Notes: a model not told the origin generated them from the sequence alone. A DNA stretch of 32,945 nucleotides from a bacterium (GCA_013360215.1 JABWCP010000032.1:1-32945), one strand, 5' to 3'; shown: positions 6,076 to 30,621, numbered from the stretch's first letter. Numbers and translations are program-made.

Positions 6076-8313
6076 TCACTTAGCCCAATGATTCCACTGT
6101 AGTGTCAAATATGCATTTCTTCCGCGTCCCGGCATTTTTTGAATGTTGGCATGTTCACGGTAATCGGTATCCAAAACATTTTCTACACCCCATTGCAATT
6201 CCGCGTGTTTATTCACTTTTATACCGCCTCGGATTGTAAATAAGGTAAAACCGTGCGTGCGATGTTCAACCGCCTGTTGTTTGGCAAAACGGTTTTGTGA
6301 AGCGGCCGTTTTATTAGACAATTCAAACCAATACGAACCCGGCACCCAACGCACACTGTTTAAAACTTCAAGCGGCGCCATACCGGGCATCGGTTCATCC
6401 CATGCACTTACGCGGCTGTAACGGTATGAGGCTGTAATCTGCCATGCGATGGTATTGGTAATACTTCGAAAATGCGACGCTTCGATACCGGCAAGATCCG
6501 CGTGATGGACGTTTTCAATTTGTTTGAACAGCGTATCGGTGGTAATACCTGCGATATAGCGATCAATCCGTGTGTAAAAAATCTGCGCTTTGGAAATATG
6601 CTTATCCGTTTTGTATTCGTACGACAGTTCCGATTGATAACTGATCTCGGGTTTGAGATTGGGATTGCCTGTATAAATAAATCCATCGGACACATTATAA
6701 AAATAAAAACCATAGTTCTCGATATGCGTCGGCGTACGCGCCGTCCGTGCGAGCGCTAATCGCAATTTTTGATCGGCCATCATTTGCCATTCCGCAGCCG
6801 CACTGGCGCTAAAAGTTATGTATGATGTATTGAGGTGCGTCCGGTTCCAATATCCTTCCAACTCCCGGCGACCGATATCATCATGCAGGGAACGAACGGA
6901 ATAATCCAAACGGAATGATGATTTGAAAACAATTTTTTCCGTTAACAAACGACGGTATTCGGCGGCGGCGGCGTAGTTATAAACATGCGTTGACCCGATA
7001 TTGACGAGGTACATCGGCGAAACCTCGGGATCCAAACTTTGCATATCCATATCGGCAAACGCCGTCATACGATAAAAATCCACAACCCATTTGATGCCTT
7101 GAATATTGTCGCCGGTATAGAGATTGCTCGAAAAACCGATCGTACGCGTATTGCCGTACATCGGCATATACATATTCGGCATAAAATCACGTGCCGTGAC
7201 ATCTCTGTCGTAGTCATCCATATCATGATCCACCATGTTAAAATACACTTTGGTATTCAAAAACGATGCATGATGCCAAGGTTGTCTCCACTGGTGTTCA
7301 AGACCAAAAATATTGGCCACTGCGCGGCGGGTATCCATCAGCAAAACGGGATAACCGGCATCGGTTGCAACATCGCGAATATACGATGCCGTCCAGGTAT
7401 GATTACCGTTTTGGTGCGCAATATCCGTTTTAACGTTGGATTTATTATATCCTGAATTATGCATCAAACGGCCGTCACCGGCACGGAAATCATCGGACTT
7501 GCGAAGCGAAACGCCCGCGCGTGCGGCCCATGCACCGCCGGACCAATTGGTGGTCGAGCGCACAAAACGCAAATGAGATACGTTTTCATATCCGGTTTGT
7601 ACGCCGATGGCAAAGGGTACGGAAAAATCGGGTTTGCCCGTTCTGAGATTGAGTGATCCACCGATCGTCTGCCCGGCGCTCATATCGAAACCGCCTTTAG
7701 CAACTTCGATTTTTTCGAGATTATCTATTTCGACGTACGACGTGACGGGATCCATTTTGTCAATGCACGCGCCAAAAATTTTCATATCATCCACAAGCAC
7801 CTGAATTTGGCCGCCGCTTAGCCCCCGGATGGCCGGTTCTAATCCGAAATTGCCGCGACGAATCAGGGAAAGGCCGTCTGTTTTTTCAAGAATGTCGTCC
7901 GTGGTGTTGAGTTTCTTTTCAAGATAATACGATTCCTGCTGTTGCTCGATCCACGGGGCTGAAACAATGACTTCTTCTTCAAAACGAATCGCATTGCTGC
8001 GAAGAAAAACAGGCATGATTCTTTTTTCGCTAAAATGGTCCACGCTCACCCATGCGGTTTGGTACCCGACGCACGAAATGCGCAGTTTGTATTTGCCGTG
8101 ATGACGCGGAAGATGAAAGTAACCGGCGCTGTCGGCTATCGTACCTTCTTCCGTGCTGTCCATCCGTATATGCGCATAACGCACGGCTTCGCGGGTTTCT
8201 TCATCCACGATACGACCATGCACCATCGTAGCGTGTTCCTGAGCTTGTACGGATAGGGTTACCAAAACAACTAACCCTGTACAGTATTTGATGATCATTA
8301 ACATAGGTTTCAT
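6076..8313 (-). CDS. TonB-dependent receptor, OprC/NosA-like copper transporter with an N-terminal carboxypeptidase-regulatory-like domain
   Basis: Signal peptide; plug motifs (IRGLSGGQIQVLVD, IEVAKG); barrel motifs (GNPNLKPE, GVENVLD, PGRGRN); CxxxM (GACIDKMDP), HxM (VDHDMDDY) and a Met-rich loop (FMPNMYMPM). Confidence 0.8.
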   Translation of the reverse strand: MKPMLMIIKYCTGLVVLVTLSVQAQEHATMVHGRIVDEETREAVRYAHIRMDSTEEGTIADSAGYFHLPRHHGKYKLRISCVGYQTAWVSVDHFSEKRIMPVFLRSNAIRFEEEVIVSAPWIEQQQESYYLEKKLNTTDDILEKTDGLSLIRRGNFGLEPAIRGLSGGQIQVLVDDMKIFGACIDKMDPVTSYVEIDNLEKIEVAKGGFDMSAGQTIGGSLNLRTGKPDFSVPFAIGVQTGYENVSHLRFVRSTTNWSGGAWAARAGVSLRKSDDFRAGDGRLMHNSGYNKSNVKTDIAHQNGNHTWTASYIRDVATDAGYPVLLMDTRRAVANIFGLEHQWRQPWHHASFLNTKVYFNMVDHDMDDYDRDVTARDFMPNMYMPMYGNTRTIGFSSNLYTGDNIQGIKWVVDFYRMTAFADMDMQSLDPEVSPMYLVNIGSTHVYNYAAAAEYRRLLTEKIVFKSSFRLDYSVRSLHDDIGRRELEGYWNRTHLNTSYITFSASAAAEWQMMADQKLRLALARTARTPTHIENYGFYFYNVSDGFIYTGNPNLKPEISYQSELSYEYKTDKHISKAQIFYTRIDRYIAGITTDTLFKQIENVHHADLAGIEASHFRSITNTIAWQITASYRYSRVSAWDEPMPGMAPLEVLNSVRWVPGSYWFELSNKTAASQNRFAKQQAVEHRTHGFTLFTIRGGIKVNKHAELQWGVENVLDTDYREHANIQKMPGRGRNAYLTLQWNHWAK

Positions 8314-8354
8314 ATTTACACTCAATGAATTAGCGAAACTTTTTACTTTCAAAT

Positions 8355-8390
8355 CATGCGGCTTCCGGGAGGCTCTCCGAAAGCCGCATG
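8355..8390 (-). other. Intergenic GC-rich stem-loop
   Basis: CATGCGGCTT (8355-8364) and AAGCCGCATG (8381-8390) are perfect inverted repeats with further inner pairing; no clear U-tract on the minus strand. Confidence 0.7.
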
Positions 8391-8401
8391 GACTCTACAT
8401 A

Positions 8402-9193
8402 CTAATCAACGGTAACATCAAAATGCGTTTCCACAACGGTTGCCGCATTGCGGGTAATGCTGACATCCACTTGCCAATCGCCGGTCATCGTAAAATTGAC
8501 TTTTCCGCGATATACGGCGCCGCTAACATACACCGGATCTACGTTATTAGGCGATCCGTGTCCCATAGACGGCATCGTCGGTTCGATCGCAAGAGTCGCA
8601 TCGGTCACATCGGGAAATGACATCATGGATACGCGCTCATGCACCATCAGCTCCAATGTGTTCAAACCGACTTCCGGTACACGCGGTTTTTTCCATGAAA
8701 GAATGTACGACTTCGCATCCGTTCCCGTTACGACTTTACAACGATTGGAAGATTTGACCTTGGGTTCGATCATCACCGAACCTTCTTTACCGCTGTGGTG
8801 ATCGTGAAATTCCACTTCCAATTCCCAATACTCCATGTCATTGCCCGGCATTTGAAATACGACATACCCTTCAAATAATCCTTCTTCCGCTTCTTCACTT
8901 TCCGGATTACCGTACGGTGCGGCATGTGTCATTTCCGTCATATGCATCACCGGTGACAAGTGAATATGCCCTTCGTCAAGTATTTCTCCGCTCGCCGAAT
9001 CCTGCAAACGCGTATAGATCGCGTTATATCCGGTAGTCAACGTATCTTCGGAATACACCGAAACCAAAACACCTTGATCGTATCCTTGACCTATCAAAAC
9101 CATATCGTTGACGGGATCGGACGAATTTTTGTCTTTTTCACAAGACGAAATAAAAACAACCGTCATGATGATAATTGCTAACCAACGTAACAT
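8402..9193 (-). CDS. YtkA/FixH-like lipoprotein, Met/His-rich (putative copper-binding)
   Basis: Lipobox VFISSC; two related domains carrying PVMHMTEMTHAAP and PTMPSMGHGSP, plus FTMTGDWQV, typical of YtkA-like domains. Confidence 0.7.
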   Translation of the reverse strand: MLRWLAIIIMTVVFISSCEKDKNSSDPVNDMVLIGQGYDQGVLVSVYSEDTLTTGYNAIYTRLQDSASGEILDEGHIHLSPVMHMTEMTHAAPYGNPESEEAEEGLFEGYVVFQMPGNDMEYWELEVEFHDHHSGKEGSVMIEPKVKSSNRCKVVTGTDAKSYILSWKKPRVPEVGLNTLELMVHERVSMMSFPDVTDATLAIEPTMPSMGHGSPNNVDPVYVSGAVYRGKVNFTMTGDWQVDVSITRNAATVVETHFDVTVD

Positions 9194-9445
9194 GATAAAC
9201 GCTCCCAATTTTTTTTTGATATACTTCGCACACGCGTCGCTCCAAACTTCTTTTTTTGAAGCTTAACTGCAGGGCGCATAAAATTTGACCTGTCATCGTG
9301 ACGATACACCACACTCCGGTACGTAACTGACGGTCGTACTCAGAGCATTGTCATTGTATCTGTTCGATGATCCCATTGAACTAACCGGATGTCTCACATC
9401 ATTGCAAAGCACGATGCACCGAGCATCCGTTGTTTGGAAAAGAGT

Positions 9446-9817
9446 TTAGGCACGCGGCGGGTGAAAAATATCGGAAGGCGTTTTTGAAATGAAAATCGGT
9501 TGCGTGAAAGAGGAAAGTATCGTCGTATAATGAAATTCGGCTATAATTATAGCCGGTCGGATATGAACCGCAATTAATGATTCGCGTTGCATTTCGCCGT
9601 TACCTTTGGTGCCGCAGCCTTCATTGCGTATCGAGCAGGCGTCCGCATCCGCTTGTGTGACATTTTTATGATCGCAGGTACATGCTTTGCCTTGCGACAA
9701 ACAGCAACACGTTTTGACGCTGCTTTCGCTAATAGCACGAAAAGCCTGCGGCAACCCTGCTGAAAATAGCGTTACGACTAAAAGAAATGCCGGTATTTTG
9801 ATTTTTAAAATACGCAT
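9446..9817 (-). CDS. Small Cys-rich protein with signal sequence and C-terminal FHPPRA; candidate DUF2946/CruR/CutF-like regulatory ORF
   Basis: 123 aa; ATG lies 1 nt after the upstream stop (TGA-T-ATG); hydrophobic N-terminus; 7 Cys (CCC, CTC, C, C); ends PSDIFHPPRA. Confidence 0.65.
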   Translation of the reverse strand: MRILKIKIPAFLLVVTLFSAGLPQAFRAISESSVKTCCCLSQGKACTCDHKNVTQADADACSIRNEGCGTKGNGEMQRESLIAVHIRPAIIIAEFHYTTILSSFTQPIFISKTPSDIFHPPRA

Positions 9818-9818
9818 A

Positions 9819-10328
9819 TCACCACGGGTTTCCACGAACTATCATGACGGCCAAAAAAACAATAATCAGACTGATTAGCAGATTTACGCGGCCGATCCAA
9901 GACGCCGCTTTGCGCAGTCCGGGTACCGACGGATGATCCGGGGTATCGCGCCACATACGGGTGGCTTTGGGTCCAAGCCAAAAATCATGCAAACCGCCAA
10001 GCACTAATAGCAGCATAAACAGCGTGATTTTAATTCCCAGTGTGTGCCCGAAATGGCTGTCATAAAATTCGGATTTAAAAAAATCACCCCAGGAATACCC
10101 TCGGGCAAATACATTATATAAACCGGTAGTGAGCAGCAAACCAAATACGATCCAGCCCCAAAAACGAAAACGTTCTCCGGCCCATAATACGATTTTCGGT
10201 GCCACATTTTTATAATCCGGATTGCGGAGAAGCGGAACAAACACAATCACAAAAAAAATCAAACCGCCCACCCAAATCATGGCACAAAGAATATGCAGAA
10301 ATACGGATATAAAATAACCGGTCAACAT
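9819..10328 (-). CDS. CopD/DUF4149-like membrane protein
   Basis: 169 aa, four TM helices, LH..CA..WVGG and LHDF..GP motifs; begins 3 nt after the nosY stop. Confidence 0.7.
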   Translation of the reverse strand: MLTGYFISVFLHILCAMIWVGGLIFFVIVFVPLLRNPDYKNVAPKIVLWAGERFRFWGWIVFGLLLTTGLYNVFARGYSWGDFFKSEFYDSHFGHTLGIKITLFMLLLVLGGLHDFWLGPKATRMWRDTPDHPSVPGLRKAASWIGRVNLLISLIIVFLAVMIVRGNPW

Positions 10329-10331
10329 GAT

Positions 10332-11123
10332 TTAGAAATCCTTTTTTAAAAAGTGTCGCTTGGCAACAAATAACGGTATCACAGCCCATCCTACCAAGGC
10401 CGCCAAAGATACAATAACACCGAGAGAACCGCCAAAGAATTTTTTAAACGCAGCCCCTGTATAACCCATCATCGCGGCAACATCCATTTTCATCAGTATC
10501 ATCGAGCGCGCAATATTGATGGGATTGAGCATACTGATGCCGATCAGCGGTTTTTCCAACGGATAGTCGGCGAAGGCATACACGATGTATAACACCATGC
10601 CATCAAAAAGTAACGCCAGAGCGAACCACAGGCCTAGAGCAAAACCGATGCCTTTGAGTTTGTCATCTGTGCGCATTGCAATACCAAAAGCCAGCGCGCT
10701 AAAAATCAGCGTTAGCAATAAACCTGTCCCCAGCAACATTACAGGGATTCGCCAATCCGGTATCGAGTTATAACCGAACATCAGTATCGGAACACCTGCG
10801 CCGACGACAAACCCTCCTGCCAGCGGCAGCGCCATTCCGAGATACACGCCCCAAAATAGTTTGCTGCGACGTATCGGTTGGCACAGAAGAATTTCAATAA
10901 ATTCGCGCGAGTGATATACATGCATGGCGCCGAATATCATACTTACCAGCGGTACGATAAGAAGCAAAATCTGCGTCATCGTCAGAAATACGCGACTTGC
11001 ATCCCCTTGCAATTGAAACAACCCGAAGGTCAGCACAAAGAAAAAAGCCGTGTACAAAATGATCCATTTATTACGGATCTGATCGTACCATTCGAATTTT
11101 AGTATTTTTTGGAGAGCGTCCAC
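10332..11123 (-). CDS. nosY: Nos ABC transporter permease NosY
   Basis: Six or more TM segments, SREFIEILLCQPIRR, LNPINIAR, A.MGYTGA motifs; overlaps nosF; GTG start. Confidence 0.9.
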   Translation of the reverse strand: MDALQKILKFEWYDQIRNKWIILYTAFFFVLTFGLFQLQGDASRVFLTMTQILLLIVPLVSMIFGAMHVYHSREFIEILLCQPIRRSKLFWGVYLGMALPLAGGFVVGAGVPILMFGYNSIPDWRIPVMLLGTGLLLTLIFSALAFGIAMRTDDKLKGIGFALGLWFALALLFDGMVLYIVYAFADYPLEKPLIGISMLNPINIARSMILMKMDVAAMMGYTGAAFKKFFGGSLGVIVSLAALVGWAVIPLFVAKRHFLKKDF

Positions 11124-11833
11124 AGTCCAAGTCCTTTCATCAAATGTGCGATGGATCGTTCGAGCCGTTCTTCGCCGGTCTTTTGACGCAGATCTTCGAT
11201 CGTACCTTCAAAATTGACGCACCCTTCATTTAAAAACAAAACACGATCGGTGATTTCTTCCAATTCACTCATCACATGCGACGTAATGATCACCGTGCGA
11301 CCGTTATTTTTTTCTTTGAGAATTTTATCCTTGAGTAACGTACTCGATACGGGATCAAGCCCGGCGGTGGGTTCATCCAATATCAGTACATCCGGCCGAA
11401 AAAGAAAAGCGAGGTACGCATTCACTTTTTGTTTGGTTCCGCCGGAGAGGTGTTTGAGTGCTTTACTGATTTCCCTTTCGAGCTGCAGTGAACGCATCAA
11501 CTCTTCATCGCGATCCGTAACCATATCGCGAAGATCGGCCATAAGCGATAATAGTTCGTGCACTTTCATGTTTTCGGGAAACCGCGCGGTCTGTGGCATA
11601 TATCCGATACGCCGACGGTATTCGGCATCCTGTGGTGCTATCGCTTTGCCGTCCAGCGTGATCAAACCGCTGTCGGGTGTTACCAAACCGAGTATGGATT
11701 TGATAAGCGTGGATTTGCCGGAACCGTTAGGTCCGATGATGGCTGTGACTTTTCCGGTATCAAACGAAGCGTTGACGCGATTGAGCACGCGCTGTTCGCC
11801 AAAATTTTTGATTAGTGATTGGATTGTTATCAT
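11099..11833 (-). CDS. nosF: Nos ABC transporter ATPase NosF
   Basis: Walker A GPNGSGKS, signature LSGG, Walker B LILDEP, H-loop TSH; ATGA overlap with the nosD stop. Confidence 0.92.
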   Translation of the reverse strand: MITIQSLIKNFGEQRVLNRVNASFDTGKVTAIIGPNGSGKSTLIKSILGLVTPDSGLITLDGKAIAPQDAEYRRRIGYMPQTARFPENMKVHELLSLMADLRDMVTDRDEELMRSLQLEREISKALKHLSGGTKQKVNAYLAFLFRPDVLILDEPTAGLDPVSSTLLKDKILKEKNNGRTVIITSHVMSELEEITDRVLFLNEGCVNFEGTIEDLRQKTGEERLERSIAHLMKGLGLWTLSKKY

Positions 11834-13065
11834 AAGCACCGCCCCATTTTGGGTTTGTCGTCCATGAGCGCCGCCGGTGTAAGCGACGGAATAATGCGCT
11901 CGACCAGATCGAGGGCGACGATCGTGAGGCTGCGCATGAGGATCATCGCTTCCGTATGCTGTTCGGAAATCACGGAAAAAAGACTTACGGGGCGATACGG
12001 CTCATCACCGACTCCGTCGCGATCCAGATCATAACCGCTGTAATTGGACCAATAGTTCATCGAAAACGTATTGCGGTTACTGCGCGAATTGGTCGCTACG
12101 TCAAACGCATTATTCTCAAAATCGTTTTCCGTAAAAAAATTATCTGTACAGTTTCCTAAAAGCCGCAACGCCCAGCCGTTGTGTACAAAACGGTTCCTCC
12201 GCATCGTCATACGATTGGACCCTTCCATGTGCACGCCGGCGGTATTGTTCTCGAACACATTATCACGAATATCACTGTCGGTAATATCTTTGAGCAATAT
12301 CCCATACGATGCCGGACCCCAGTTACGGCGAAATGTATTACCGTACATCGCAATATACCGTGTGTACATCACGGCCACACCGGCCGAGTTTTCTTCAAAT
12401 GTATTACCCGTGTATGTACAACTGTCAGAAAACATGAAATGCAGCCCGTAGCGCAGATTACCTAAACTGTGATTATTGCGAATGATGCTGGATTTGACAA
12501 ATTCGAAATAAATACCGTCACGATGTCCGTTGATAGCATTATTTTCGATCGTGATCGCGCGGCAATACCAGAGATGAATGCCGTTACCGGACGAGGATTC
12601 TGTTTTGCCGTCGCTGGATATAAAATTATTTCGCACCAAGCAAAAACTGCTTTTGGCGAGATAGATCGCAAAAAAATTCTTTTCAAACCGATTATCTTCG
12701 ATCGTCACAAAACGTGCGTCGTTGACTTTGACGGCGGCATTTTCCTGCGTGTAACTTATACCTGCACGGACAAATACAAATCCGCGTACAGTCACATACG
12801 ACGCTTCGATGCGCCAGATTTCCGATGTAGCGAGACCGTCCATCACGGGCCAATCCACGCCGATCAGTACGACTTGTTTTTGGATCCAAAGCGGTCCCTC
12901 GGCATAACGTCCTTTGTGAACAAAGATCGTGTCTGTATTTTTCGCCGCTTCCAATGCCGATCGCACGGACGAATACGAAAATCCTTCTCCGACGTGCAAG
13001 GCTTTGGCAAAAACCGTCGTACCCAGCATCACGGCCAACAAACTATGTATGATCCATTTTCGCAT
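11830..13065 (-). CDS. nosD: Nitrous oxide reductase maturation protein NosD
   Basis: Signal peptide, beta-helix repeats, GNGIHLW, RDGIYFEF, RYGLHFMFS, GVAVMY, NYWSNYSGYDLDRDGVGD.PY. ATG 13065 lies 1 nt after the upstream stop. Confidence 0.95.
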   Translation of the reverse strand: MRKWIIHSLLAVMLGTTVFAKALHVGEGFSYSSVRSALEAAKNTDTIFVHKGRYAEGPLWIQKQVVLIGVDWPVMDGLATSEIWRIEASYVTVRGFVFVRAGISYTQENAAVKVNDARFVTIEDNRFEKNFFAIYLAKSSFCLVRNNFISSDGKTESSSGNGIHLWYCRAITIENNAINGHRDGIYFEFVKSSIIRNNHSLGNLRYGLHFMFSDSCTYTGNTFEENSAGVAVMYTRYIAMYGNTFRRNWGPASYGILLKDITDSDIRDNVFENNTAGVHMEGSNRMTMRRNRFVHNGWALRLLGNCTDNFFTENDFENNAFDVATNSRSNRNTFSMNYWSNYSGYDLDRDGVGDEPYRPVSLFSVISEQHTEAMILMRSLTIVALDLVERIIPSLTPAALMDDKPKMGRCL

Positions 13066-13066
13066 A

Positions 13067-14443
13067 TCAGAGTTTTTCAAAATGCGCCGTAAAATGACGC
13101 AAAAATTTCGGTTCGTAGGTGATTTTATAGCCGCGCACTTTTTCTTTATTCTTTACGATTTCATCGAAAACTTCGATCACATAATCCACGTGGCTTTGCG
13201 TATATACACGTCGCGGAATCGCAAGGCGTACGAGTTCCATCGGCGAAGGAATCAATTTTCCGGACGCTTCGTATTTGCCAAACATCACTGAGCCCACTTC
13301 CACGCAACGAATACCGCCGACTTTGTAAAGTTCGCAAACAAGCGCTTGCCCGGGGTATTGATCCACGGGAATATGCGGATACAGGTCTTTGGCATTGATA
13401 TACACCGCATGACCGCCGACGGGTAGCATGATCGGTACGCCGAGCGCGTTGATTTTTTCACCGAGATACTGCGTGCTGCGAATGCGATACTTGAGATAAT
13501 CTGCGTCAAAAACTTCCTGCAAACCCACGGCCATAGCGTCCATATCACGACCGGCTAGTCCGCCGTATGTGGTAAAACCTTCGGTAATGATCAAAAGATT
13601 GGTACAAGCTGCGGCGATCGCATCGTCACGCAATGCCAGAAATCCGCCGATATTGACAAGCCCATCTTTTTTGGCGCTCATCACACAACCATCGGCAAGA
13701 TCAAACATGGCCTGCGCAATTTCTTTATATGAAAGATGCGCACACTCCGCTTCGCCATGTTTGATAAAGTATGCATTTTCTGCGACGCGGCAGGCATCTA
13801 TGATAAACAAAATTTTGTACTTCGCGCAGAGTTCACTCAAAGCACGGGCATTGGCAAGGCTCACGGGTTGGCCGCCGCCGGTATTATTGGTAACGGTCAG
13901 GATAACGGCAGCGATATTTTCAGCGTTGTATTTTTTAATCCAATACTCGACCTGTACCAAATCAATATTACCTTTGAAAGGGTGTGGCTTACCGGGCTCC
14001 AGCGCCTCGGGGATGGGGCAATCGATCGCCGTGGCGCCGGAAAATTCGATATTGGCCCGGGTTGTGTCAAAGTGCGTATTACTCAAAAAAACTTTACCTT
14101 TGCCGCCCAGATGGCCGTACAGAATGCGTTCGGCTGCGCGCCCCTGATGCGTCGGCAGAATGTGAGGATATCCGGTAAGGTCTTTGACGACGGACTCCAG
14201 ACGTTCCCAACTTTGTGCGCCGGCATAGGATTCGTCACCGCTGATCATAGCGGCCCATTGTTTATGACTCATAGCCGACGTACCGCTGTCCGTCAAAAAA
14301 TCAATCAGCACATGCTCGGATTTGAGCAAAAAAGGATTGTAGTGCGCTTGATGCAAAAGTTGTTGACGTTCCTCTTCGCTCGTCATATAAATGGGTTCAA
14401 CCATTTTGATACGAAAAGGTTCAATAATAACATTGTGTTTCAT
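13067..14443 (-). CDS. tnaA: Tryptophanase (tryptophan indole-lyase; PLP beta-eliminating lyase)
   Basis: 458 aa; EPFRIKMVE, IDFLTDSGT, GDESYAG, THQGRAAE, PLP lysine motif MSAKKDG, RLAIPRRVYT. FDTT and LRHFTA match tryptophanase rather than tyrosine phenol-lyase (FTTT, LRFFTA). Confidence 0.88.
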   Translation of the reverse strand: MKHNVIIEPFRIKMVEPIYMTSEEERQQLLHQAHYNPFLLKSEHVLIDFLTDSGTSAMSHKQWAAMISGDESYAGAQSWERLESVVKDLTGYPHILPTHQGRAAERILYGHLGGKGKVFLSNTHFDTTRANIEFSGATAIDCPIPEALEPGKPHPFKGNIDLVQVEYWIKKYNAENIAAVILTVTNNTGGGQPVSLANARALSELCAKYKILFIIDACRVAENAYFIKHGEAECAHLSYKEIAQAMFDLADGCVMSAKKDGLVNIGGFLALRDDAIAAACTNLLIITEGFTTYGGLAGRDMDAMAVGLQEVFDADYLKYRIRSTQYLGEKINALGVPIMLPVGGHAVYINAKDLYPHIPVDQYPGQALVCELYKVGGIRCVEVGSVMFGKYEASGKLIPSPMELVRLAIPRRVYTQSHVDYVIEVFDEIVKNKEKVRGYKITYEPKFLRHFTAHFEKL

Positions 14444-14526
14444 TGTCGTTTTCCTGATAGTTTTTCGGTTACAATGGACACAATATAAATTTTCATGCTT
14501 CTTTTTTTTCTGACAAAAGTCATATT

Positions 14527-14985
14527 TTAAAAACGATTTTCTTTTTCTATGTAAGCTTTGAGTTGTTCCCAACTCATAATGTCGCCGCTGTTTTCTTTCT
14601 GTGCATTTTCGACGGCTATATTCCCGTTATAAGCGGAGAGAAACAAACCCATCGGGCTGGGTCTTTTTTCGCTGCGCAGATAGCGCGCATCTTTGGCCGG
14701 AATAAACGTTTCGGGCTGATCAAAGGTCGTCACCCAGATCGTACCTTGATCGTTGGCTGATTTTTGTTGATGATAATACTTCACCAAACATTCGATGGAA
14801 TCAAATTTGTAAATTTTTCCTTTTTCGGTTACCCACTCGCTGCCAAAACGGCGATCCGTAATGCCCATACGGCAATGGGCGCACTCGTCTTGTCCATAGG
14901 CGATGGGTTCGGGCCCGGACGTACAAGACCATACCAGTAATGATAACAGGCTAAGCAGCGCCGGGAATCGGTTTGACCGCAACAT
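14527..14985 (-). CDS. nosL: Copper chaperone lipoprotein NosL
   Basis: GGAGG RBS before ATG 14985; lipobox LVWSC; CAHCRM, FDSIECL and SPMG motifs. Confidence 0.92.
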   Translation of the reverse strand: MLRSNRFPALLSLLSLLVWSCTSGPEPIAYGQDECAHCRMGITDRRFGSEWVTEKGKIYKFDSIECLVKYYHQQKSANDQGTIWVTTFDQPETFIPAKDARYLRSEKRPSPMGLFLSAYNGNIAVENAQKENSGDIMSWEQLKAYIEKENRF

Positions 14986-15577
14986 GGTTTTTTTCCTCCG
15001 TGATGGACGTGTTTTTACGTGATACGAAAAGAACATACAACGTGATCAAAAATGATAATCCTGCCAGAATGCCTCCGATACTCGGTAGCGATGTCGTATG
15101 CATATTCAGAAGCTGTTTGCTTCCGATAAGCGGCGGTTGATAGCTCATACCGGGAATTTTGATCGCCGCATGCGGGTTGAGATTATGACCGTAGTCGTAT
15201 TCCCACAAATAAAAATCCACCAAACCTGCGATCAAAATCGCCAAAAATAAAAACGCCCATACGCCAAGGATTTTTCGTTTTCCAATCCACGCCGCTAAAA
15301 GCCCCGTTAGAATCAAAAAACCTACAAAATAGGGCATGATTTTAAGTTCGGGTATGGATTCGGGCGTAATTTCTTTCATGCCGATATAGTGATTGAGACC
15401 ATTGATAGTTCTGAGGTCGTGCTGATTTTCGCCGCTGATTTTATTGACCCAAATATAGAGACCGAGCCCTTCGGGATATTGCGGCGCATCAAGCGTGATT
15501 TTCCAAAGCGGCGTAAAATATATACCGGTCAGTATAAGCGAAGCCACCGCAATCAGTATTTTTTGTCGTTTATTCAT
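14951..15577 (-). CDS. nosB: Clade II nos membrane protein NosB
   Basis: PLWKITLDAPQYPEGL, INGLNHYIGM, DFYLWEYDYGHNL.P.A.IK.PGM.YQPPLIG.KQLLN; four TM helices; directly downstream of nosZ. Confidence 0.88.
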   Translation of the reverse strand: MNKRQKILIAVASLILTGIYFTPLWKITLDAPQYPEGLGLYIWVNKISGENQHDLRTINGLNHYIGMKEITPESIPELKIMPYFVGFLILTGLLAAWIGKRKILGVWAFLFLAILIAGLVDFYLWEYDYGHNLNPHAAIKIPGMSYQPPLIGSKQLLNMHTTSLPSIGGILAGLSFLITLYVLFVSRKNTSITEEKNHVAVKPIPGAA

Positions 15578-15589
15578 AACACACCTTAC

Positions 15590-15624
15590 AAAGAAAATAA
15601 AGGGGAGGTTTTTTGAGCCTCCCC
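15590..15624 (-). terminator. Intrinsic terminator/attenuator between nosZ and nosB
   Basis: Minus strand GGGGAGG-ctcaaaaaa-CCTCCCC followed by TTTATTTTCTTT, 12 nt after the nosZ stop. Confidence 0.75.
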
Positions 15625-15636
15625 CAAAATTCAAAC

Positions 15637-17601
15637 TTATTTACCTGTGCTAAATGTCAGCGCGGTATTGGAACCGGCAGCCGAAACGCGAACGTAACCT
15701 TGCATTTCCTGATGCAATGCGGAGCAGAAATCCGTGCAATACATCGGATAAACGCCGGGTGTCTTCGGTTCCCAACGTACGGTAGCGGTTTCACCGGGCA
15801 TGATCAGAAGTTCCGCATTGTTATTGCCTTTGATGGCAAATCCGTGCGGCACATCCCAATCTTGTTCGAGATTGGTTACATGGAAATAAACCACATCACC
15901 GACCTTGACGCCTTCGATATTGTCCGGCGCAAAGTGAGAGCGCGAAGCGGTCATATACACATGCACTTCTTTGCCTTCACGAACGACTTTGGCATCTTTT
16001 TCGCTCTTGGTCGCATACTTATGTTCGTTTTTATTGATGTCAAAAATTTTGACTTCATGTTTGCGAACGAGATCCGCCGCAATACCTTGAGCATAGTGCG
16101 GTTCGCCTATCGTCGGGAAATCCGACAACATGCGCATTTTGTCGCCGCTTATATCGATCAACTGAGCGGATTGCGTGAGCTCCGGACCCGTCGGAAGATA
16201 ACGGTCTTTGGTGATTTTATTCATCGCCAATACATATTTGCCCCACGGTTGTTTACTGTCGCCGCCGGGGATCATGAGGTGACCGATCGAATAGTAGGTC
16301 GGCATGCGGTCAACGACTTCCCACGTACCGAGTTTCCATTTGACAACTTCCGATGATACGAAGTGGGACGTATACGCATAACCTTTACCGTCAAATTCGG
16401 TATGGAGCGGTCCGAGGCCCGGTTCTTGTACTTCACCGGCCAATACGGCATCGTATTTGAGAACAGGAATACCATCGCGATCGCCGTCAAACGCTTTGCC
16501 TTCGATGGCTTTGATCATCTTGCTGAAAGAAAATACGGGAATAACTGTAGCCAGCTTTCCGCCACCGACGATGTATTCGCCGGACGGATCCACGTCAGCG
16601 CCATGCGGAGATTTCGGGCAAGGCATCAGATACAACATATCGGGACAATCTTTGGGATCCAGCATCATCACTTGTTTTTTCTTTTCGGAAATCGTGGTGT
16701 GCTTATTGTCATCATAACGGTTGATATAATATTCCGAAGCCCAAGGTTTCGCTTTGCCCTGTTTGATATATTCTTCGGCTTTCTTCCAGTTTACCGCCAT
16801 GATGAAATCTTTATCATTCTGGCTGGCATTGACTTCAAGCAACGTATGCGCTTGTTCCGTATTGTACGTGGAGAAGAAGAACCATCCATGAGACGGACCT
16901 TTACCGGCATGGCTCAGATCATAGTTGAAACCCGGCACCAGTATCTGGAACGCGAGATCCATGTGGCCTTCTTTAGGATCAACTTTGACAAATGAAATCG
17001 CGCCTTTGAAATTTTGTTTGTACGAATTGATCGCTACGTCGGCTTGCGGTGTCGGCACGCTAAAACGTGTCGCCGATACGACGTACTCCGTATTGATCGT
17101 CGTGAACGGCGAAGCGTGGCTGCCGCCGCTATTGGGAATTTCGATGATTTCTTCGGTACGGAATGTACCCAAATCAATACGCGCGATACGCGGCGAATTA
17201 TTGGCATTGATAAAAAGCCAACGTCCGTCCGGAGTACCGTCGGTCATGGATAATTCAGGATGGTGGCTGTCGTCCCAGGGAATGAAGCCGTCCGTCGTCT
17301 GAAGCATACCTTTGGTTTCTTCATTGAAGCCCCAGCCGTTTTCAGGGTTTACGGCAAAAACAGGGATCGTTTTGAAAAGGCGACCGCTTGGCAGACCATA
17401 GACAGACACCTGACCACTAAAGCCGCCGGAGAGAAATGCATAGAACTCATCATAACTTCCGGGTGGAACAAACACTTTGGATGCGGCATCACCGCTACCG
17501 ATCGTTGCCTCTTTTTTTGCAGGGCACCCGATCCAGACCGCGGCTAATGCGAGCACAACCAACGACGCATAAACTATGCGTGCGGATGGTTTTCGGAACA
17601 T
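15637..17601 (-). CDS. nosZ: Nitrous oxide reductase, clade II (Sec-type, probable lipoprotein)
   Basis: GAGGAG RBS before ATG 17601; no twin-Arg motif, signal ends VWIGC. All seven CuZ His contexts (DSHH, GSHASP, PHG, GPLH, GHL, EPH) and the CuA ligands (PHGF...CTDFCSALHQEM) are present. Confidence 0.97.
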   Translation of the reverse strand: MFRKPSARIVYASLVVLALAAVWIGCPAKKEATIGSGDAASKVFVPPGSYDEFYAFLSGGFSGQVSVYGLPSGRLFKTIPVFAVNPENGWGFNEETKGMLQTTDGFIPWDDSHHPELSMTDGTPDGRWLFINANNSPRIARIDLGTFRTEEIIEIPNSGGSHASPFTTINTEYVVSATRFSVPTPQADVAINSYKQNFKGAISFVKVDPKEGHMDLAFQILVPGFNYDLSHAGKGPSHGWFFFSTYNTEQAHTLLEVNASQNDKDFIMAVNWKKAEEYIKQGKAKPWASEYYINRYDDNKHTTISEKKKQVMMLDPKDCPDMLYLMPCPKSPHGADVDPSGEYIVGGGKLATVIPVFSFSKMIKAIEGKAFDGDRDGIPVLKYDAVLAGEVQEPGLGPLHTEFDGKGYAYTSHFVSSEVVKWKLGTWEVVDRMPTYYSIGHLMIPGGDSKQPWGKYVLAMNKITKDRYLPTGPELTQSAQLIDISGDKMRMLSDFPTIGEPHYAQGIAADLVRKHEVKIFDINKNEHKYATKSEKDAKVVREGKEVHVYMTASRSHFAPDNIEGVKVGDVVYFHVTNLEQDWDVPHGFAIKGNNNAELLIMPGETATVRWEPKTPGVYPMYCTDFCSALHQEMQGYVRVSAAGSNTALTFSTGK

Positions 17602-17670
17602 AAGAGCCTCCTCGATCACTCAGATCGTTTTTTTGTTTTATGTAAACGATGGTATAAGCCATCGAAATCA

Positions 17671-18174
17671 TCACGAAGGTTTTTTCGCGTTTTCATTAGC
17701 ATGGCGCAGATACTCTAAGATGGCACGGCATTCGTCCATCGTGAGATTCTGATTGGCCATCGGAATCAAAAATTGTGCGAATAATTTTTTGGCATCCGGA
17801 TGATTCTTGATCATACCTTCCGGATTGAGCATCATATTCATCACGTATTCCGGTTTTCGGATTTTGAGTACATCCTGGAGCGGCGGGCCGACCAGTTTGG
17901 TATCCAAACGATGGCAGGCGTAGCACTTGGTTTCAAAGGCTTTTTCGCCCTTTTTGACCAGTGTCGTATTGATGGCTTCCAATTTCAGTTCCTCTTTGAC
18001 CGGGCCGATACCGTGTTCTTTTTCAAATGCCGTCAATCCGGCATACGGGTCCGGTTTGGCAGGTTTATTGGCGGCTTCTCCCCAAGAAGCTTTGGCTTCT
18101 TCATTGGATGAACCGCAAGCTGTCATAGATATGGCGGCCGCGAAAATGGCGAGCGCTAACACATAGGATTTCAT
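17671..18174 (-). CDS. Monoheme class I cytochrome c lipoprotein associated with nosZ
   Basis: Lipobox MTAC; CYACH heme motif; VGPPL; distal Met in IPMANQ. Confidence 0.9.
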   Translation of the reverse strand: MKSYVLALAIFAAAISMTACGSSNEEAKASWGEAANKPAKPDPYAGLTAFEKEHGIGPVKEELKLEAINTTLVKKGEKAFETKCYACHRLDTKLVGPPLQDVLKIRKPEYVMNMMLNPEGMIKNHPDAKKLFAQFLIPMANQNLTMDECRAILEYLRHANENAKKPS

Positions 18175-18199
18175 GATATTTTCCTTTGAGGTTTATGAA

Positions 18200-18946
18200 T
18201 TAATTGTGTGTGGTTTTGTCGAAAATTTGTTTTTCCATCATGACGGCCTTGGGAAACAAAACATTGTTTTCGAGGTGCACATGTTTATGAAGGTCTTGTT
18301 CAAACTCTTGCAACTCATGCAGAAGCAGACGGTAGGTCGTACAAGCATCCACAGGAACATGGTAATCGGCCGTCAACGTGCGGATTTTTTCCATCTGCTG
18401 TCCCGCAAACGCATGTTCATGTTCCATGACATGGATCGGATTGAGCACGGTGCCAAACCCATTGGGACGGATCGGCGCGTGATGCGTGATGTAATTTTCC
18501 AATTCGCAGACGTAGGGAAAAAGAATCACTTCTTCTTTTTGCAAATGCAATTTGAGCTCGGATGATAGCGCTTCAAACGCTTCACGAACGGTTACCATTT
18601 CCGGATGGTGATCGCCATGAACCTGTGCCACTTTATTAAGGTGACGTTCGATCAGTGGAATCGCGTGGCGCATGTAGGTATGATGATTGCTTTGAATATA
18701 TTCGACTATAAATCCCGCTGGTTGTTCATGGATCGGCTTAGGTTGTTGACCTTGAGAGGGTGATTGAATAGCTTTTTCGATATCACGGCATACATCCGCC
18801 AGCGCGATATCTTTATCACGGCAAGCGTCGGATAAAATTTTTTTCCCGCCACAACAAAAATCCAAACGATAGTGTTCGAGAATTTCGGCTGAACGAGGGT
18901 ATTCCAATACGATTTGACCAAGAGGCATGTCTTCAAATGATTTCAT
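18200..18946 (-). CDS. ric: Iron-sulfur cluster repair di-iron protein (RIC/YtfE/ScdA)
   Basis: N-terminal LDFCCGG; hemerythrin-like HH, HLQKEEVILFP, MEHEH and HKHVHLENNVLFP motifs. Confidence 0.93.
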   Translation of the reverse strand: MKSFEDMPLGQIVLEYPRSAEILEHYRLDFCCGGKKILSDACRDKDIALADVCRDIEKAIQSPSQGQQPKPIHEQPAGFIVEYIQSNHHTYMRHAIPLIERHLNKVAQVHGDHHPEMVTVREAFEALSSELKLHLQKEEVILFPYVCELENYITHHAPIRPNGFGTVLNPIHVMEHEHAFAGQQMEKIRTLTADYHVPVDACTTYRLLLHELQEFEQDLHKHVHLENNVLFPKAVMMEKQIFDKTTHN

Positions 18947-18965
18947 TTTTAATCCTTTAGAAGAT

Positions 18966-18986
18966 TTAAGAGTATTTTATCTTTAA
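18966..18986 (-). promoter_or_regulatory. Candidate Rrf2 operator upstream of ric
   Basis: TTAAGAGTATTTTATCTTTAA (+ strand), imperfect palindrome with AAGA-N8-TCTT core; 17/21 identical to 19520..19540. Confidence 0.55.
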
Positions 18987-19009
18987 TATGAATAAAAAAA
19001 TTCCCCGCT

Positions 19010-19474
19010 TCACTTCGGTTGTTTTTTTTCTTCCTCATATCCTTCGTCGGCGATTCGGAAATTGAACGTATTGATTTTATCCGCCAGTGTATTGAGTGTA
19101 GCATTTTCAAACATCGCATTTATCTTCTCACGGTGTTTGGCCCATTCACTATGCAAGGGGCAAGGCGCAAGATTGCCACAGCCGGGCAATCCAAAAATAC
19201 ATTGATCAAAAATATTAGGACCGTCTATGGCTTCGACAATATCCGTAAGTGAAATATCTTTGGGGTCGCGCGCCAAGGCCACTCCGCCTTTGGGTCCGCG
19301 GTAGGATATCATGATATTATTTTCCGTTAGCTGCTGTAAAATCTTGGTCAAGAAGTGAAATGATATATTGAGGTTTTCAGAAATCTGCTGAATCGGCACA
19401 TATTCTTTATGACCAAGAGACGCCACATACATCGCGGCACGAATTCCGTATAAACAACTTTTAGTTAGTAGCAT
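19010..19474 (-). CDS. Rrf2-family transcriptional regulator (NsrR/IscR-like, probable Fe-S binding)
   Basis: Winged HTH (FLTKILQQL...SYRGPKGG..LA...ISL.DIV.AIDG) and C-x6-C-x5-CPLH (CIFGLPGCGNLAPCPLH). Confidence 0.92.
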   Translation of the reverse strand: MLLTKSCLYGIRAAMYVASLGHKEYVPIQQISENLNISFHFLTKILQQLTENNIMISYRGPKGGVALARDPKDISLTDIVEAIDGPNIFDQCIFGLPGCGNLAPCPLHSEWAKHREKINAMFENATLNTLADKINTFNFRIADEGYEEEKKQPK

Positions 19475-19519: not shown

Positions 19520-19540
19520 TTCAGAGTCTTTTGTCTTAAA
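19520..19540 (-). promoter_or_regulatory. Candidate Rrf2 operator upstream of rrf2
   Basis: TTCAGAGTCTTTTGTCTTAAA (+ strand); overlaps the predicted -10 element and transcription start region. Confidence 0.55.
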
Positions 19541-19566
19541 ATAAGGTATTCGACCTCATTTGTCAA
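19538..19566 (-). promoter_or_regulatory. Sigma70-type promoter of the rrf2-ric-nos unit
   Basis: Minus strand TTGACA (19566-19561), 17-nt spacer, TATTTT (19543-19538). Confidence 0.6.
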
Positions 19567-28815: not shown

Positions 28816-30621
28816 TTGACATCTCTTGAAATATTGATCCAAAAAATCTCCCGCGCGCTTCTGATCGAAGCCAAACAAAAAGGATTTTCCGATCGTCAGT
28901 TGGCACACATCTGGGAAACGGACGAAAAAACCGTTCGCCGGTTGCGGCACGAATTGAAGGTGTTTCCCGTATACAAAACCGTAGATACCTGCGCAGCAGA
29001 ATTTGAAGCGGAGACCCCTTACTTTTATTCCACCTACGATCAGGAAACAGAAAACGCGCCGTCGGATAAAAAGAAAGTGATCATACTTGGCGGCGGACCC
29101 AACCGTATCGGACAAGGTATCGAGTTTGACTATTGTTGTGTACACGGTGTATATGCATTGCAGGAAGAAGGTTACGAAGTTATCATGGTCAACTGCAATC
29201 CGGAAACTGTAAGCACGGATTACGATACATCGGATCGTTTGTATTTTGAGCCGCTGACATTTGAAGATGTGATGAATATTATCGAATCCGAAAAGCCCGA
29301 CGGTGTGATAGTGCAGTTTGGCGGACAGACGCCGCTCAAGTTGGCCATACCTCTGATGCAAGCCGGTGTAAAAATTCTTGGTACATCACCGGAAGATATT
29401 GATGTTGCCGAAGACCGTAAAAAATTCGGCGCCTTACTCAATCGTCTAAACATCAAATGCCCGGATTACGGCACGGCGTCTTCGTTTGAAGATGCCCGCA
29501 CGATCGCCCATCGCATCGGCTACCCCGTATTAGTCCGGCCTTCGTATGTTCTCGGCGGTCGTGCTATGGAAATCGTTTATGATGATACCGCACTGGAAAA
29601 CTACATGGCACGAGCCATCAACGTGTCGCCGGAGCATCCGATTCTCGTAGATAAATTTCTGGTAGACGCGTACGAATTTGACGTGGATGCCATTTCCGAC
29701 GGAAAAACCGTAGTGATCGGCGGCATCATGCAGCATATCGAAGAAGCCGGCATTCATTCCGGTGACAGCTCCTGCGTTCTACCGCCGTATTCGGCTTCGG
29801 ACGAAGTACTGGCCAAACTGAGAGCCTACACAGTTCAGCTCGCACGCGAATTGAATGTCATCGGACTGATCAATATCCAATACGCACTCAAAGGTGAAGA
29901 AGTATATGTATTGGAAGTTAATCCGCGTGCTTCACGTACCGTACCCTTTGTCAGTAAAGCGATCGGCGTACCCTTGGCTAAACTAGCCGCGAAAGTGATG
30001 GTTGGAAAAACGTTAGAATCATTAAATTACACAAACGAAATTATTCCGCCGTTTACCTCCGTCAAAGATCCGGTCTTTCCTTTTGCCAAGTTCCCCGGTA
30101 TTCGCATGTACCTGAGCCCGGAAATGCGTTCCACCGGCGAGGTAATGGGAATTGCCGAAACTTTTCCTCAAGCCTTAGCTAAAGCGCACATTGCCGCCGG
30201 TATGCAAATGCCTACGTCGGGCGGAGTTTTTGTCACTGTCAACGACCGGGACAAATCTAAAATTTCTCTGATTGCCAAAGAATTCATGGATCTGGGATTC
30301 ACGATTTATGCCACCGAAGGCACGGGCAAAGTTCTGGAACAATCAGGCATCGAATGTAAACATGTATTCAAAATTCATGAAGGCCGGCCCAACGTCGTTG
30401 ACCGCATCAAAAACAAAGAAATTCATATCGTCATCAATACACCGACGGGCAAAGCCGCAAAATTAGACGAACGCTACATCGGCGAAGCGGCCATGCTGTA
30501 CAAAATACCGATGATCACGACTTTGCCGGGCGCTCTGGGGCTTGTCAAAGGATTGCGCGCCATCAAAGAACAAAAACTCGATGTACGCAGCATCCAAGAA
30601 CATCATATGGCGCTGGTATGA
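28816..30621 (+). CDS. carB: Carbamoyl-phosphate synthase large subunit, C-terminal section only
   Basis: 601 aa, TTG start. Begins in the oligomerisation domain ([23 protein letters not shown]), then one ATP-grasp domain ([46 protein letters not shown]) and the MGS domain. Confidence 0.92.

Follow-up and report, generated by a model that had tools for sequence, protein, structure and literature searches.

The stretch of 32,945 nucleotides analysed here (hereafter, the window) holds a genuine N2O-reductase gene cluster of an uncultured sludge bacterium. The cluster is probably a three-layered operon, induced by low oxygen (or nitric oxide), of an N2O reducer that does not denitrify, and it combines real copper provisioning with a co-regulated catabolic passenger. 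These layers would be a standard clade II core (cytC-nosZ-B-L-D-F-Y plus RIC), at the operon tail a portable module for copper import (leader-ytkA-receptor), and the ordinary tryptophanase of the lineage, brought into the operon by its need for the same low-oxygen switch. An earlier note on this DNA had proposed 14 consecutive minus-strand genes at 6076..19474; all 14 ORFs are real and their labels hold. They are given here 5' to 3' on that strand, together with the associated elements.

19538..19566, minus: sigma70-type promoter candidate (TTGACA-17-TATTTT) ahead of rrf2, from the promoter scan
19520..19539, unstranded: 20-bp palindrome, candidate Rrf2 operator 1, score 22.8, joint top in the 3.7-Mb genome
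19010..19474, minus: rrf2, Rrf2 repressor, PF02082
18966..18985, unstranded: second palindrome copy, ahead of ric, score 17.7, genome rank 4
18200..18946, minus: ric, RIC/ScdA di-iron Fe-S repair protein, TIGR03652 passed (234 bits, cut-off 205)
17671..18174, minus: cytC, monoheme cytochrome c lipoprotein (CYACH), profile match
15637..17601, minus: nosZ, Sec-type clade II NosZ, intact, TIGR04246 953 bits (cut-off 625)
15601..15625, minus: 8-bp G+C hairpin followed by a U-rich tract, 3' of nosZ, from RNA folding
14951..15577, minus: nosB, NosB, with LNHYIGM and YGHN stretches
14527..14985, minus: nosL, NosL copper chaperone lipoprotein, PF05573
13067..14443, minus: tnaA, tryptophanase-type PLP beta-eliminating lyase, NF009709 681 bits (cut-off 285)
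11830..13065, minus: nosD, NosD, TIGR04247 417 bits (cut-off 300)
11099..11833, minus: nosF, NosF ABC ATPase, ABC ATPase match
10332..11123, minus: nosY, NosY permease, permease match
9819..10328, minus: copD-like, small four-helix CopD/DUF4149-family membrane protein, PF05425 passed
9446..9817, minus: leader, Cys-rich ORF with an N-terminal hydrophobic helix and a C-terminal FHPP, from sequence features
8402..9193, minus: ytkA, Met/His-rich lipoprotein with two Ig-like YtkA domains, PF13115
8356..8389, minus: strong 13-bp hairpin without a U tract, between ytkA and the receptor gene, from RNA folding
6076..8313, minus: receptor, OprC/NosA-like TonB-dependent receptor with a CxxxM-HxM copper site, all four ligands aligned with 6fok (E 8e-19)

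With the most plausible start codons, the junctions from rrf2 to the receptor gene measured 63, 25, 69, 59, -35, 83, 1, -4, -25, 3, 1, 252 and 88 nt. The overlapping or 1-3 nt junctions described in the earlier note were found at six of the 13, the other seven being 25-252 nt; a tight run extends through tnaA-nosD-nosF-nosY-copD-leader, and the widest gap lies upstream of ytkA. A neighbourhood comparison found all 14 gene types together in five of 14 family relatives, so that the arrangement is not unique to this assembly. Misassembly was rejected on the basis of the shared gene set and of bridging contigs from three independent studies, which span rrf2-ric-cytC-nosZ, ric to nosL, tnaA-nosD-nosF and nosY-copD-leader; the nosL-tnaA junction is spanned by a contig of a related strain. 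Among the matches listed, no contig bridged the nosF-nosY, leader-ytkA and ytkA-tonB junctions, adjacencies that are shared by relatives. Rfam and tRNA searches gave no match, and riboswitch control was rejected.

The core of the operon is of a common type. NosZ scored 953 bits with TIGR04246 vs 378 with the Tat-type model, placing it in clade II, and keeps the CuA motif and all seven CuZ-His motifs; it is predicted to be an active N2O reductase. NosB had no Pfam match and carries the two stretches given for this protein (PMC9697520). As in the clade II clusters of Bacteroidota and relatives (Flavobacterium, PMC9697520), the window combines a Sec-type NosZ with NosB and with the order cytC-nosZ-nosB-nosL-nosD-nosF-nosY (nosB and nosDFYL present, nosR and nosX absent from the cluster), and Rrf2 and RIC lie nearby (PMC9697520, PMC6264515), Rrf2 being enriched on clade II nos scaffolds (PMC6264515). 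Among nos loci of at least 10 kb outside the family, rrf2 was present in 25/36, ric in 10/36 and a cytochrome c gene adjoining nosZ in 32/36; the cytC lipoprotein encoded here is likely the electron donor to NosZ. NosL is encoded directly upstream of nosD in 62 of 63 scorable outside loci. The bundled Fe-S repair of the earlier note is real as a gene, though RIC is not special here because it is a common nos neighbour, lying within 15 kb of nosZ in 24 of the 44 Bacteroidota genomes carrying both. The rrf2/ric/cytC-nosZBLDFY part is common, while tnaA between nosL and nosD, a CopD-family gene and a copper-import tail were found in none of 80 related outside nos loci. All 15 family genomes carry nosZ, and the host is probably a non-denitrifier with NrfHA, a common type among sludge genomes (PMC11409646); a NirS search gave 0/5 matches, its control query matching nowhere either. 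The hairpin 3' of nosZ, not reported by a terminator scan with a loop limit of 8 nt, may act as a partial terminator or stabilise the mRNA. In wastewater sludge, the greenhouse gas N2O is removed biologically mainly by clade II reducers without NO reductase, which are limited by copper supply and oxygen control.

The regulatory part of the locus, also proposed in the earlier note, is supported by rrf2 and by an operator-like palindrome conserved at its promoter. Residues C93, C100, C106 and H109 of Rrf2 stand at the cluster-ligand positions of IscR. The palindrome (consensus TTAAGAY-N6-RTCTTAA; matrix trained on relatives only) covers the last part of the -10 box and the expected transcription start, and occurs ahead of rrf2 in 12/12 relatives, 11 of which have a TTGACA-like -35 at similar spacing (one of the 12 rows is mis-anchored); a regex match lies ahead of ric in 8/12. 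Both window copies are within the genome top 4. From these conserved sites we infer that an Fe-S Rrf2 repressor might bind the palindrome over its own promoter and the copy ahead of ric and shut the operon off, with low oxygen (or nitric oxide) as the presumed signal. The palindrome also heads the nos clusters of G141, G168, G200 and G264 of the Bacteroidota sample and of one Balneolaceae locus; in addition to nrfH (G008), it precedes oxygen-labile catabolic genes, namely a BadF/BcrAD-type CoA activase in G011-G014 and a hemerythrin/Hgd-Bzd-type operon in G003. It gives a defined candidate operator for the Rrf2 proteins heading many clade II clusters. In the host genome, the matrix is barely above shuffles and yields false positives (18 sites >12 vs 22-28 in shuffles; five >16 vs 2-3 per shuffled genome), and no site >10 precedes nrfH. 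Two further host sites are leads only: a top site at C9:21404, preceding pstS and a probable porin, and a weak one (14.1) ahead of a fasciclin gene.

NsrR/IscR-type regulons (PMC1274295) likewise show an autoregulated Rrf2 protein, a ric (dnrN) target and a palindromic site; the site here is unlike the NsrR consensus (gATGyAT-N5-ATrCATc). Rrf2 of the window scored 51 bits against the 182 of the NsrR equivalog and was far below the IscR equivalog cut-off. Among the open-access main texts searched, no paper gave such an operator box for a nos-linked Rrf2.

Copper uptake, the next function suggested by the earlier note, is supported by the sequence at several points. The receptor keeps all four ligands of the CxxxM-HxM site defined for OprC of Pseudomonas aeruginosa and shared by NosA of P. 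stutzeri, the latter proposed to load copper on NosZ (PMC8610252); it is distant from both, has an extra N-terminal CarboxypepD_reg domain and a YtkA lipoprotein partner, and lies inside a nos operon. Its best NCBIfam model was TonB-copper TIGR01778 (129 bits, below the cut-off of 472). The YtkA lipoprotein, to which H. pylori CrdA (9ll2) aligned with a target TM-score of 0.78 and an rmsd of 2.9 (rank 28 by E-value), is on this structural model a candidate periplasmic Cu(I) chaperone. The receptor would carry copper through the outer membrane, and the lipoprotein would keep it in the periplasm for NosL/NosD.

The Cys-rich leader starts 1 nt after copD, leaving no room for a promoter, and by analogy is a candidate copper-sensing arrest peptide of the kind modelled for CruR (DUF2946) in Bordetella cruR-crtA-bp2921 (PMC9426467). 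Shared with CruR are a small ORF with an export-like N-terminus, a Cys cluster and a C-terminal PP, near-constant Cys-to-PP spacing, a long intergenic gap, a downstream copper receptor and the presence of Rho (5/5 genomes). In contrast to CruR, the leader matched no Pfam family, DUF2946 (PF11162) included, has CxC-type cysteines with no CXXC, ends in F[HR]PP with no RAPP, as in the family leaders, spaces its last Cys from PP by 51-52 (5/7 family leaders) rather than 45, and is operon-internal rather than the first gene. The ESM Atlas returned only unnamed clusters and one DUF6769 cluster. If it works like CruR, the leader would let transcription proceed only under copper shortage, making an 'anoxia AND low copper' gate. 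A C>G bubble, which ranks first among the windows of 13.5 kb and reaches the 99th-100th percentile in six family leaders, was not counted as evidence for a Rho site, given that a synonymous-codon simulation explains the C-rich tail by amino-acid content (p 0.74 here; p<0.05 in 3/18 leaders).

The leader-ytkA-receptor order recurs in 10 of 12 Bacteroidota receptor loci. NosZ was encoded in 14/19 receptor-positive genomes vs 64/200 overall, and three of those 14 have the receptor gene no more than about 3 kb from nosZ: in G200 and G204 it is divergent and has a separate box, a dedicated palindrome standing ahead of the copper leader, and in G221 it lies between nosL and nosD. Within Bacteroidota, independent events have brought the copper module into nos clusters, which makes it a candidate copper-gated importer wired into an N2O operon more than once in evolution. 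It is not nos-specific, because it is absent from the nos cluster in 8/15 family genomes and follows ctaA in G005. All 15 family genomes have the CopD-like gene in their nos cluster; the copD label overstates a copper role, since the protein (169 aa vs about 290) scored 51 bits with NCBIfam CopD NF033808 (cut-off 195) and has only one invariant His. Its predicted structure (pLDDT 89.5, four helices) matched no PDB fold at E<=0.001; the weak matches came from haem-binding bundles in bd oxidase and cytochrome b.

The tryptophanase is encoded by a single-copy gene and has no signal peptide. It passed only the subfamily model NF009709, scoring 523 of 826 bits with TIGR02617 and 534 of 750 with NF053783. 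Asp, Val and His (HFDTT, EVG, LRHF) stand where tyrosine phenol-lyase has Thr, Arg and Phe (YFTTT, ERG, LRFF; Thr124, Arg381 and Phe448), so that its motifs mark it as a typical tryptophanase by predicted specificity. It shares the catalytic and specificity motifs of tryptophan indole-lyase from E. coli and Proteus (PDB 1ax4, 8sij), which do not differ between nos-linked, unlinked and most outgroup copies. The E. coli gene sits in a tnaC-tnaB context, absent here, where the enzyme is of a Bacteroidota-type subfamily found in low-oxygen gene islands. Recurrent neighbours at 77 tnaA loci outside the family were RIC, Crp/Fnr, Rrf2, tyrosine phenol-lyase, NadAB, HemN, class II ribonucleotide reductase, U32 proteins and cbb3 oxidase, i.e. 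low-oxygen catabolic genes and oxygen-independent substitute enzymes. As tnaA is present in 5/5 order or class relatives without nosZ, it predates its link to nos. Tryptophan dioxygenase is present in 15/15 family genomes vs 0/3 of the sister family; without O2 it would be unusable, and the lyase might then turn tryptophan (and serine or cysteine) into pyruvate that fuels the cell and provides electrons for N2O reduction, with sulfide, if any is released, as a by-product. If tryptophan is an anoxic fuel, the likelier answer, indole release during N2O respiration is predicted. A dedicated palindrome precedes tnaA in G141; outside the family, tnaA operons show no enrichment of the box at their heads (2/93 heads >11 vs 5/384 others), and for this reason the predicted shared Rrf2 control of tnaA is limited to this locus and G141. 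The 1-nt tnaA-nosD junction is tighter than co-regulation alone needs. Among the open-access main texts searched, no paper joined clade II nosZ or N2O reduction with tryptophanase.

The earlier note suggested a sulfide supply, and the locus as a possible self-provisioning system for both inorganic cofactor components; copper acquisition is well supported by sequence, whereas sulfide supply by tnaA is not supported as the main reading, and tryptophanase feeding the cell without oxygen is more likely. We regard as improbable that the lyase was recruited beside nosD to release H2S from cysteine for CuZ, perhaps also for RIC-assisted Fe-S repair. It would account for tnaA lying directly before nosD or one gene away in 10/15 family genomes (6/9 genera) and in the cluster tail in two more on a separate tree branch, and for proximity to nosZ outside the family (5/77 tnaA loci within 10 kb; 3/32 Bacteroidota carrying both, within 15 kb); moreover, the sulfur route to CuZ is unresolved (PMC13685413) and E. 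coli TnaA has adventitious desulfidase activity (PMC9040844). The host yielded no sulfite reductase (0/5, control 11/14) and no convincing PAPS reductase; lacking sulfite reductase, it must therefore draw sulfide from organic sulfur or from outside. However, a dedicated CuZ cysteine desulfhydrase would be expected always to accompany nosZ, and tnaA was found in 0/80 related outside nos loci (0/36 long ones), with 31/64 nosZ-bearing Bacteroidota having no such lyase at E<=1e-100. G004, nested within the tnaA-nosD clade on the NosZ tree (98/94), has nosL and nosD adjacent and intact CuZ motifs, its interrupted off-cluster tnaA preceding an ADP-forming acyl-CoA ligase; in G007 tnaA lies elsewhere, ending a cbb3-crp-thiH run, and none was found in G010 (91% complete). 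The lyase shows no active-site shift and no signal peptide, whereas CuZ assembly is periplasmic, and the genome has other sulfur enzymes (SufS, two more desulfurase-like genes and five trans-sulfuration-family enzymes). The fuller proposal, a long shot, is that in a lineage unable to reduce sulfite the nosD-coupled tryptophanase is a working cysteine-to-sulfide source for CuZ, one Rrf2-controlled transcript supplying enzyme, copper (through the copper-gated importer) and sulfur; if true, it would give a first candidate for the enzyme's sulfur donor. The lack of sulfite reductase in the host, together with the unsettled sulfur route to CuZ, keeps sulfide supply worth considering. Among the open-access main texts searched, no relevant paper dealt with NosD and the CuZ sulfur source or cysteine desulfuration.

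Possible, though unlikely, is neutral hitch-hiking, in which tnaA and other inserts landed once in a rearrangement-prone low-oxygen island and were inherited, position mattering little and tail genes being self-controlled. The nosL-nosD slot is occupied in various relatives by ctaA, fasciclin, ywiC or DUF6448, malic enzyme follows nosY in G003, the trees allow one tnaA gain plus losses among non-independent kin (the branching of the NosD tree was not resolved), a weak promoter-like match (9/12) lies in the 83 nt between nosL and tnaA, and a gap of 252 nt stands ahead of ytkA. Against this, the linkage is kept over 6-7 genera and recurs in unrelated lineages, dedicated boxes precede tnaA (G141) and the copper leader (G200, G204), and the leader has no promoter room. 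That the tail imports copper mainly for haem-copper oxidases (aa3, cbb3), using the nos promoter only as a low-oxygen promoter, is very improbable: the genome encodes both oxidases, ctaA precedes the module in G005, OprC/NosA also occurs in non-denitrifiers, and NosZ remained normal in a nosA knockout of one P. stutzeri strain (PMC8610252), but the repeated attachment to nos clusters, including the nosL-nosD insertion in G221, and the enrichment of the receptor in nosZ genomes count against it.

The locus occurs in activated-sludge RNA libraries. Contigs of both X1 and X5 end at 14467, 24 nt ahead of the tnaA start; no internal promoter is claimed there because X1 has an adapter end at this position and X9 reads through. 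Contig depth, which is unfit to rank genes (contigs were used, runs were picked with 9450-19400, X1 carries the flag 'probably DNA' and there are holes where records were filtered out), was 114-677 in X1 and 58-164 in X5 over rrf2-nosL, 11-36 and 2-9 over tnaA-leader, and 1-8 and 0-1 over ytkA-receptor, a fall that would fit a polar transcript with attenuation.

The locus runs on the minus strand from 19474 to 6076 and comprises 14 genes, whose labels in the earlier note (rrf2, ric, cytC, nosZ, nosB, nosL, tnaA, nosD, nosF, nosY, copD-like, Cys-rich ORF, ytkA-like and oprC-like) were borne out. Six of the 13 junctions overlap or measure 1-3 nt, and the widest (252 nt) lies ahead of ytkA. Between rrf2 and the Cys-rich ORF, most junctions were spanned by contigs from three studies, two of them without a letter difference. 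With 953 bits NosZ clears the cut-off of the Sec-type clade II model, and it has the full set of CuZ and CuA motifs. The host genome (3.7 Mb, 100% complete; the window is its contig C1) belongs to a small uncultured phylum, for which 20 genomes were available, and activated sludge predominates among the public runs containing the stretch; in the available part of PMC11409646, sludge nosZ genomes are described in terms of nosZ and nosB. Since the host encodes NrfHA and aa3 and cbb3 oxidases, and neither NirK over cut-off nor NO reductase was found in its genome, its gene content describes a facultative aerobe that would reduce N2O without producing it by denitrification. A NirS search matched none of five genomes, but its control matched nowhere either. 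Divergently from rrf2, the window encodes a 2751-aa secreted protein (19823-28078) with tandem-95/cadherin-like repeats, BNR motifs and an FlgD/T9SS-like tail; at 28816-30621 a carbamoyl-phosphate synthase large subunit is represented by its C-terminal half alone (profile positions 477-1057), with no N-terminal half in the window.

Set beside 14 relatives of the same family, the locus stands as a genuine, expanded clade II operon, as predicted from sequence, that is shared across the family. nosZ was present in 14/14 family relatives and 0/5 order/class relatives, and tryptophanase in 13/14 and 5/5, respectively, with the following placement.

Position of tnaA in family relatives (fetched loci)
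Immediately before nosD: G001, G002, G003, G006, G008, G012, G013, G014
One gene from nosD: G011
In the cluster tail: G005, G009
Away from the nos cluster: G004, G007

No tnaA turned up in G010 (91% complete). Host included, tnaA stood at nosD in 10 of the 15 family genomes and within the cluster in 12, and all 15 had a CopD-family gene in the nos cluster; leader, ytkA and receptor lay within the cluster in seven, ytkA-receptor lay elsewhere in two, and none was found in six. All 14 gene types occurred together in five of the 14 relatives, but with extra inserts (ctaA, fasciclin, ywiC) and a moved copD, so the exact order is particular to the host genome. The fasciclin gene lies in the host on a separate contig (L133:8501-10545, C2), behind a weak palindrome (14.1); the gene after it is methionine gamma-lyase-like, and its product might also release sulfur. 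A pair of small membrane proteins weakly similar to the COX1 family, which ends the nos clusters of most relatives, here precedes ferrochelatase (L135:7496-8381, C49).

The core of the locus is ordinary. Of the 80 metagenomic nosD loci closest to that of the host, 63 could be scored for the order of nosL and nosD, and in 62 of these nosL came immediately before nosD. Of the 36 loci of at least 10 kb, 32 had cytC, 25 had rrf2 and 10 had ric, while not one of the 80 contained tnaA, copD, ytkA or the receptor. In a sample of 200 Bacteroidota genomes (seed genome G061 excluded, as chosen for its linkage), 44 had both ric and nosZ, and in 24 of them the two genes lay no more than 15 kb apart. Rrf2 enrichment at clade II clusters, and core gene order with NosB motifs, are already published in the portions available of PMC6264515 and PMC9697520, respectively.

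Upstream regions share the palindrome TTAAGAY-N6-RTCTTAA, just behind a TTGACA-17-TAT promoter. It precedes rrf2 in 12/12 relatives and ric in 8/12, upholding, with a candidate operator, the suggestion that regulation is encoded within the locus. With a matrix built from relatives alone, the two window sites ranked first-equal and fourth genome-wide, against a background of 2-3 sites above 16 per shuffle, which is not negligible. Nos clusters of other phyla carry this box too, and in family genomes it also stands ahead of nrfH, CoA-activase genes and an Hgd/Bzd-type operon. At the IscR positions Rrf2 shows three Cys and one His, and the protein may be an Fe-S repressor that lets go of its operator when O2 is low or NO is present. 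Its identity as NsrR was ruled out by score and by site (NsrR site from the part available of PMC1274295). In the main texts of open-access papers, none was found giving this operator. In G003, 11 kb upstream of nos, the palindrome heads an operon (L240:2995-11201) of hemerythrin, alcohol dehydrogenase, two HGD-D subunits, two BcrAD activases, an SDR and an enoyl-CoA hydratase, which resembles an anaerobic benzoyl-CoA-type pathway.

The lyase has tryptophanase rather than phenol-lyase residues, its motifs being identical in nos-linked and unlinked copies. A quick-method tree, built without the G004 fragments, duplicates or short rows, grouped 11 of the 13 family copies with one class relative and set those of G005 and G009 apart. 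The off-cluster tnaA of G004 (L138:5-831) is broken around codon 215, its pieces lying on two contigs, either as a pseudogene or through an assembly error. Among Bacteroidota, tnaA lay within 15 kb of nosZ in just three of 32 genomes having both. In G141, tnaA has a box of its own and is divergent from rrf2-ric-cytC-nosZ, with two palindrome copies in the 100-nt gap (L249:10509-10609), tnaA being followed by a QPP-ended leader and an RND efflux gene. The box was not enriched before tnaA in general (tnaA heads outside the family), and no open-access main text was found linking tryptophanase to nos clusters.

We consider it rather likely that the locus is an operon for low oxygen which brings in its own copper, with tryptophanase on board to provide fuel when O2 is absent. 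Five of the 77 closest outside tnaA loci had nosZ within 10 kb, well beyond what chance would give in a 20-kb window. Commoner neighbours were RIC, Crp/Fnr, Rrf2, tyrosine phenol-lyase, NadAB, HemN, B12 ribonucleotide reductase, U32 proteins and cbb3 genes. Most of these substitute for O2-dependent steps. The O2-dependent tryptophan dioxygenase was encoded in 15/15 family genomes and in 5/5 outside genomes with tnaA near nosZ. The earlier note had suggested possible self-provisioning of both cofactor parts, copper and sulfide; copper uptake is supported, sulfide supply is not supported as the main reading. Tryptophanase as true sulfur donor would fit the junction of just 1 nt between tnaA and nosD, a host lacking sulfite reductase, the ability of TnaA to act on cysteine as a side reaction (PMC9040844, available part) and CuZ sulfur delivery, which remains unclear according to the accessible text of a 2026 review (PMC13685413). 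It is nevertheless improbable given at least eight other candidate sulfur-releasing enzymes in the host genome, the 31 of 64 nosZ-bearing Bacteroidota without such a lyase, the 80 outside nosD loci devoid of tnaA, and G004, which nests inside the tnaA-nosD clade yet has no insert. NosZ maturation reportedly occurs in Pseudomonas putida, which is not known to carry tnaA.

Several outside loci place tryptophanase among low-oxygen genes. Tryptophanase and tyrosine phenol-lyase genes are often adjacent in Bacteroidota low-oxygen islands (L065, L072, L075, L096, L110 and others), some pairs standing between norC-like and norB-like genes. nadA-nadB-tnaA runs (L049, L107, L114; palindrome before nadA in L114) set an O2-independent NAD route next to an O2-independent tryptophan route. 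In G015, a relative without nosZ, tnaA diverges from the gene of a glycyl-radical enzyme of 902 aa that may serve to degrade aromatic amino acids anaerobically (L038:375-4740).

Copper provisioning by the locus, as predicted from sequence, is well supported, because OprC ligands, a CrdA-like fold, leader-module anatomy, nosZ enrichment and repeated nos linkage concur. Aligned to OprC, the receptor retains C143, M147, H323 and M325 (site from the available part of PMC8610252, which also gives NosA as a precedent for copper provisioning, although whether NosZ requires it is disputed). In the ytkA lipoprotein the lipobox Cys is invariant and Met/His residues form two clusters; its model has two Ig-like domains (pLDDT 91) matching mostly generic Ig folds, the copper protein CrdA fitting one domain best (target TM 0.78). 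nosZ was present in 14 of 19 receptor-positive Bacteroidota genomes versus 64/200 overall, with only five candidates per genome scored and kin not independent, and three Bacteroidota genomes hold the copper module beside or inside nos. In family clusters the Cys-rich ORF, ending in F[HR]PP, occurs solely alongside ytkA-receptor, and 10 of 12 Bacteroidota loci have an xPP-ended leader in front of ytkA-receptor. The anatomy of the ORF is like that of CruR, described in the accessible part of PMC9426467 as a copper-relieved arrest peptide governing Rho termination, but it fails the CruR family test; its C-rich tail was not accepted as independent evidence. Another cruR-headed importer is described in PMC12914433, YtkA being unmentioned in the part available. 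A second, shorter Rho-like gene below cut-off was seen in 5/5 family genomes tested (host coordinates C32:144628 and C19:255091).
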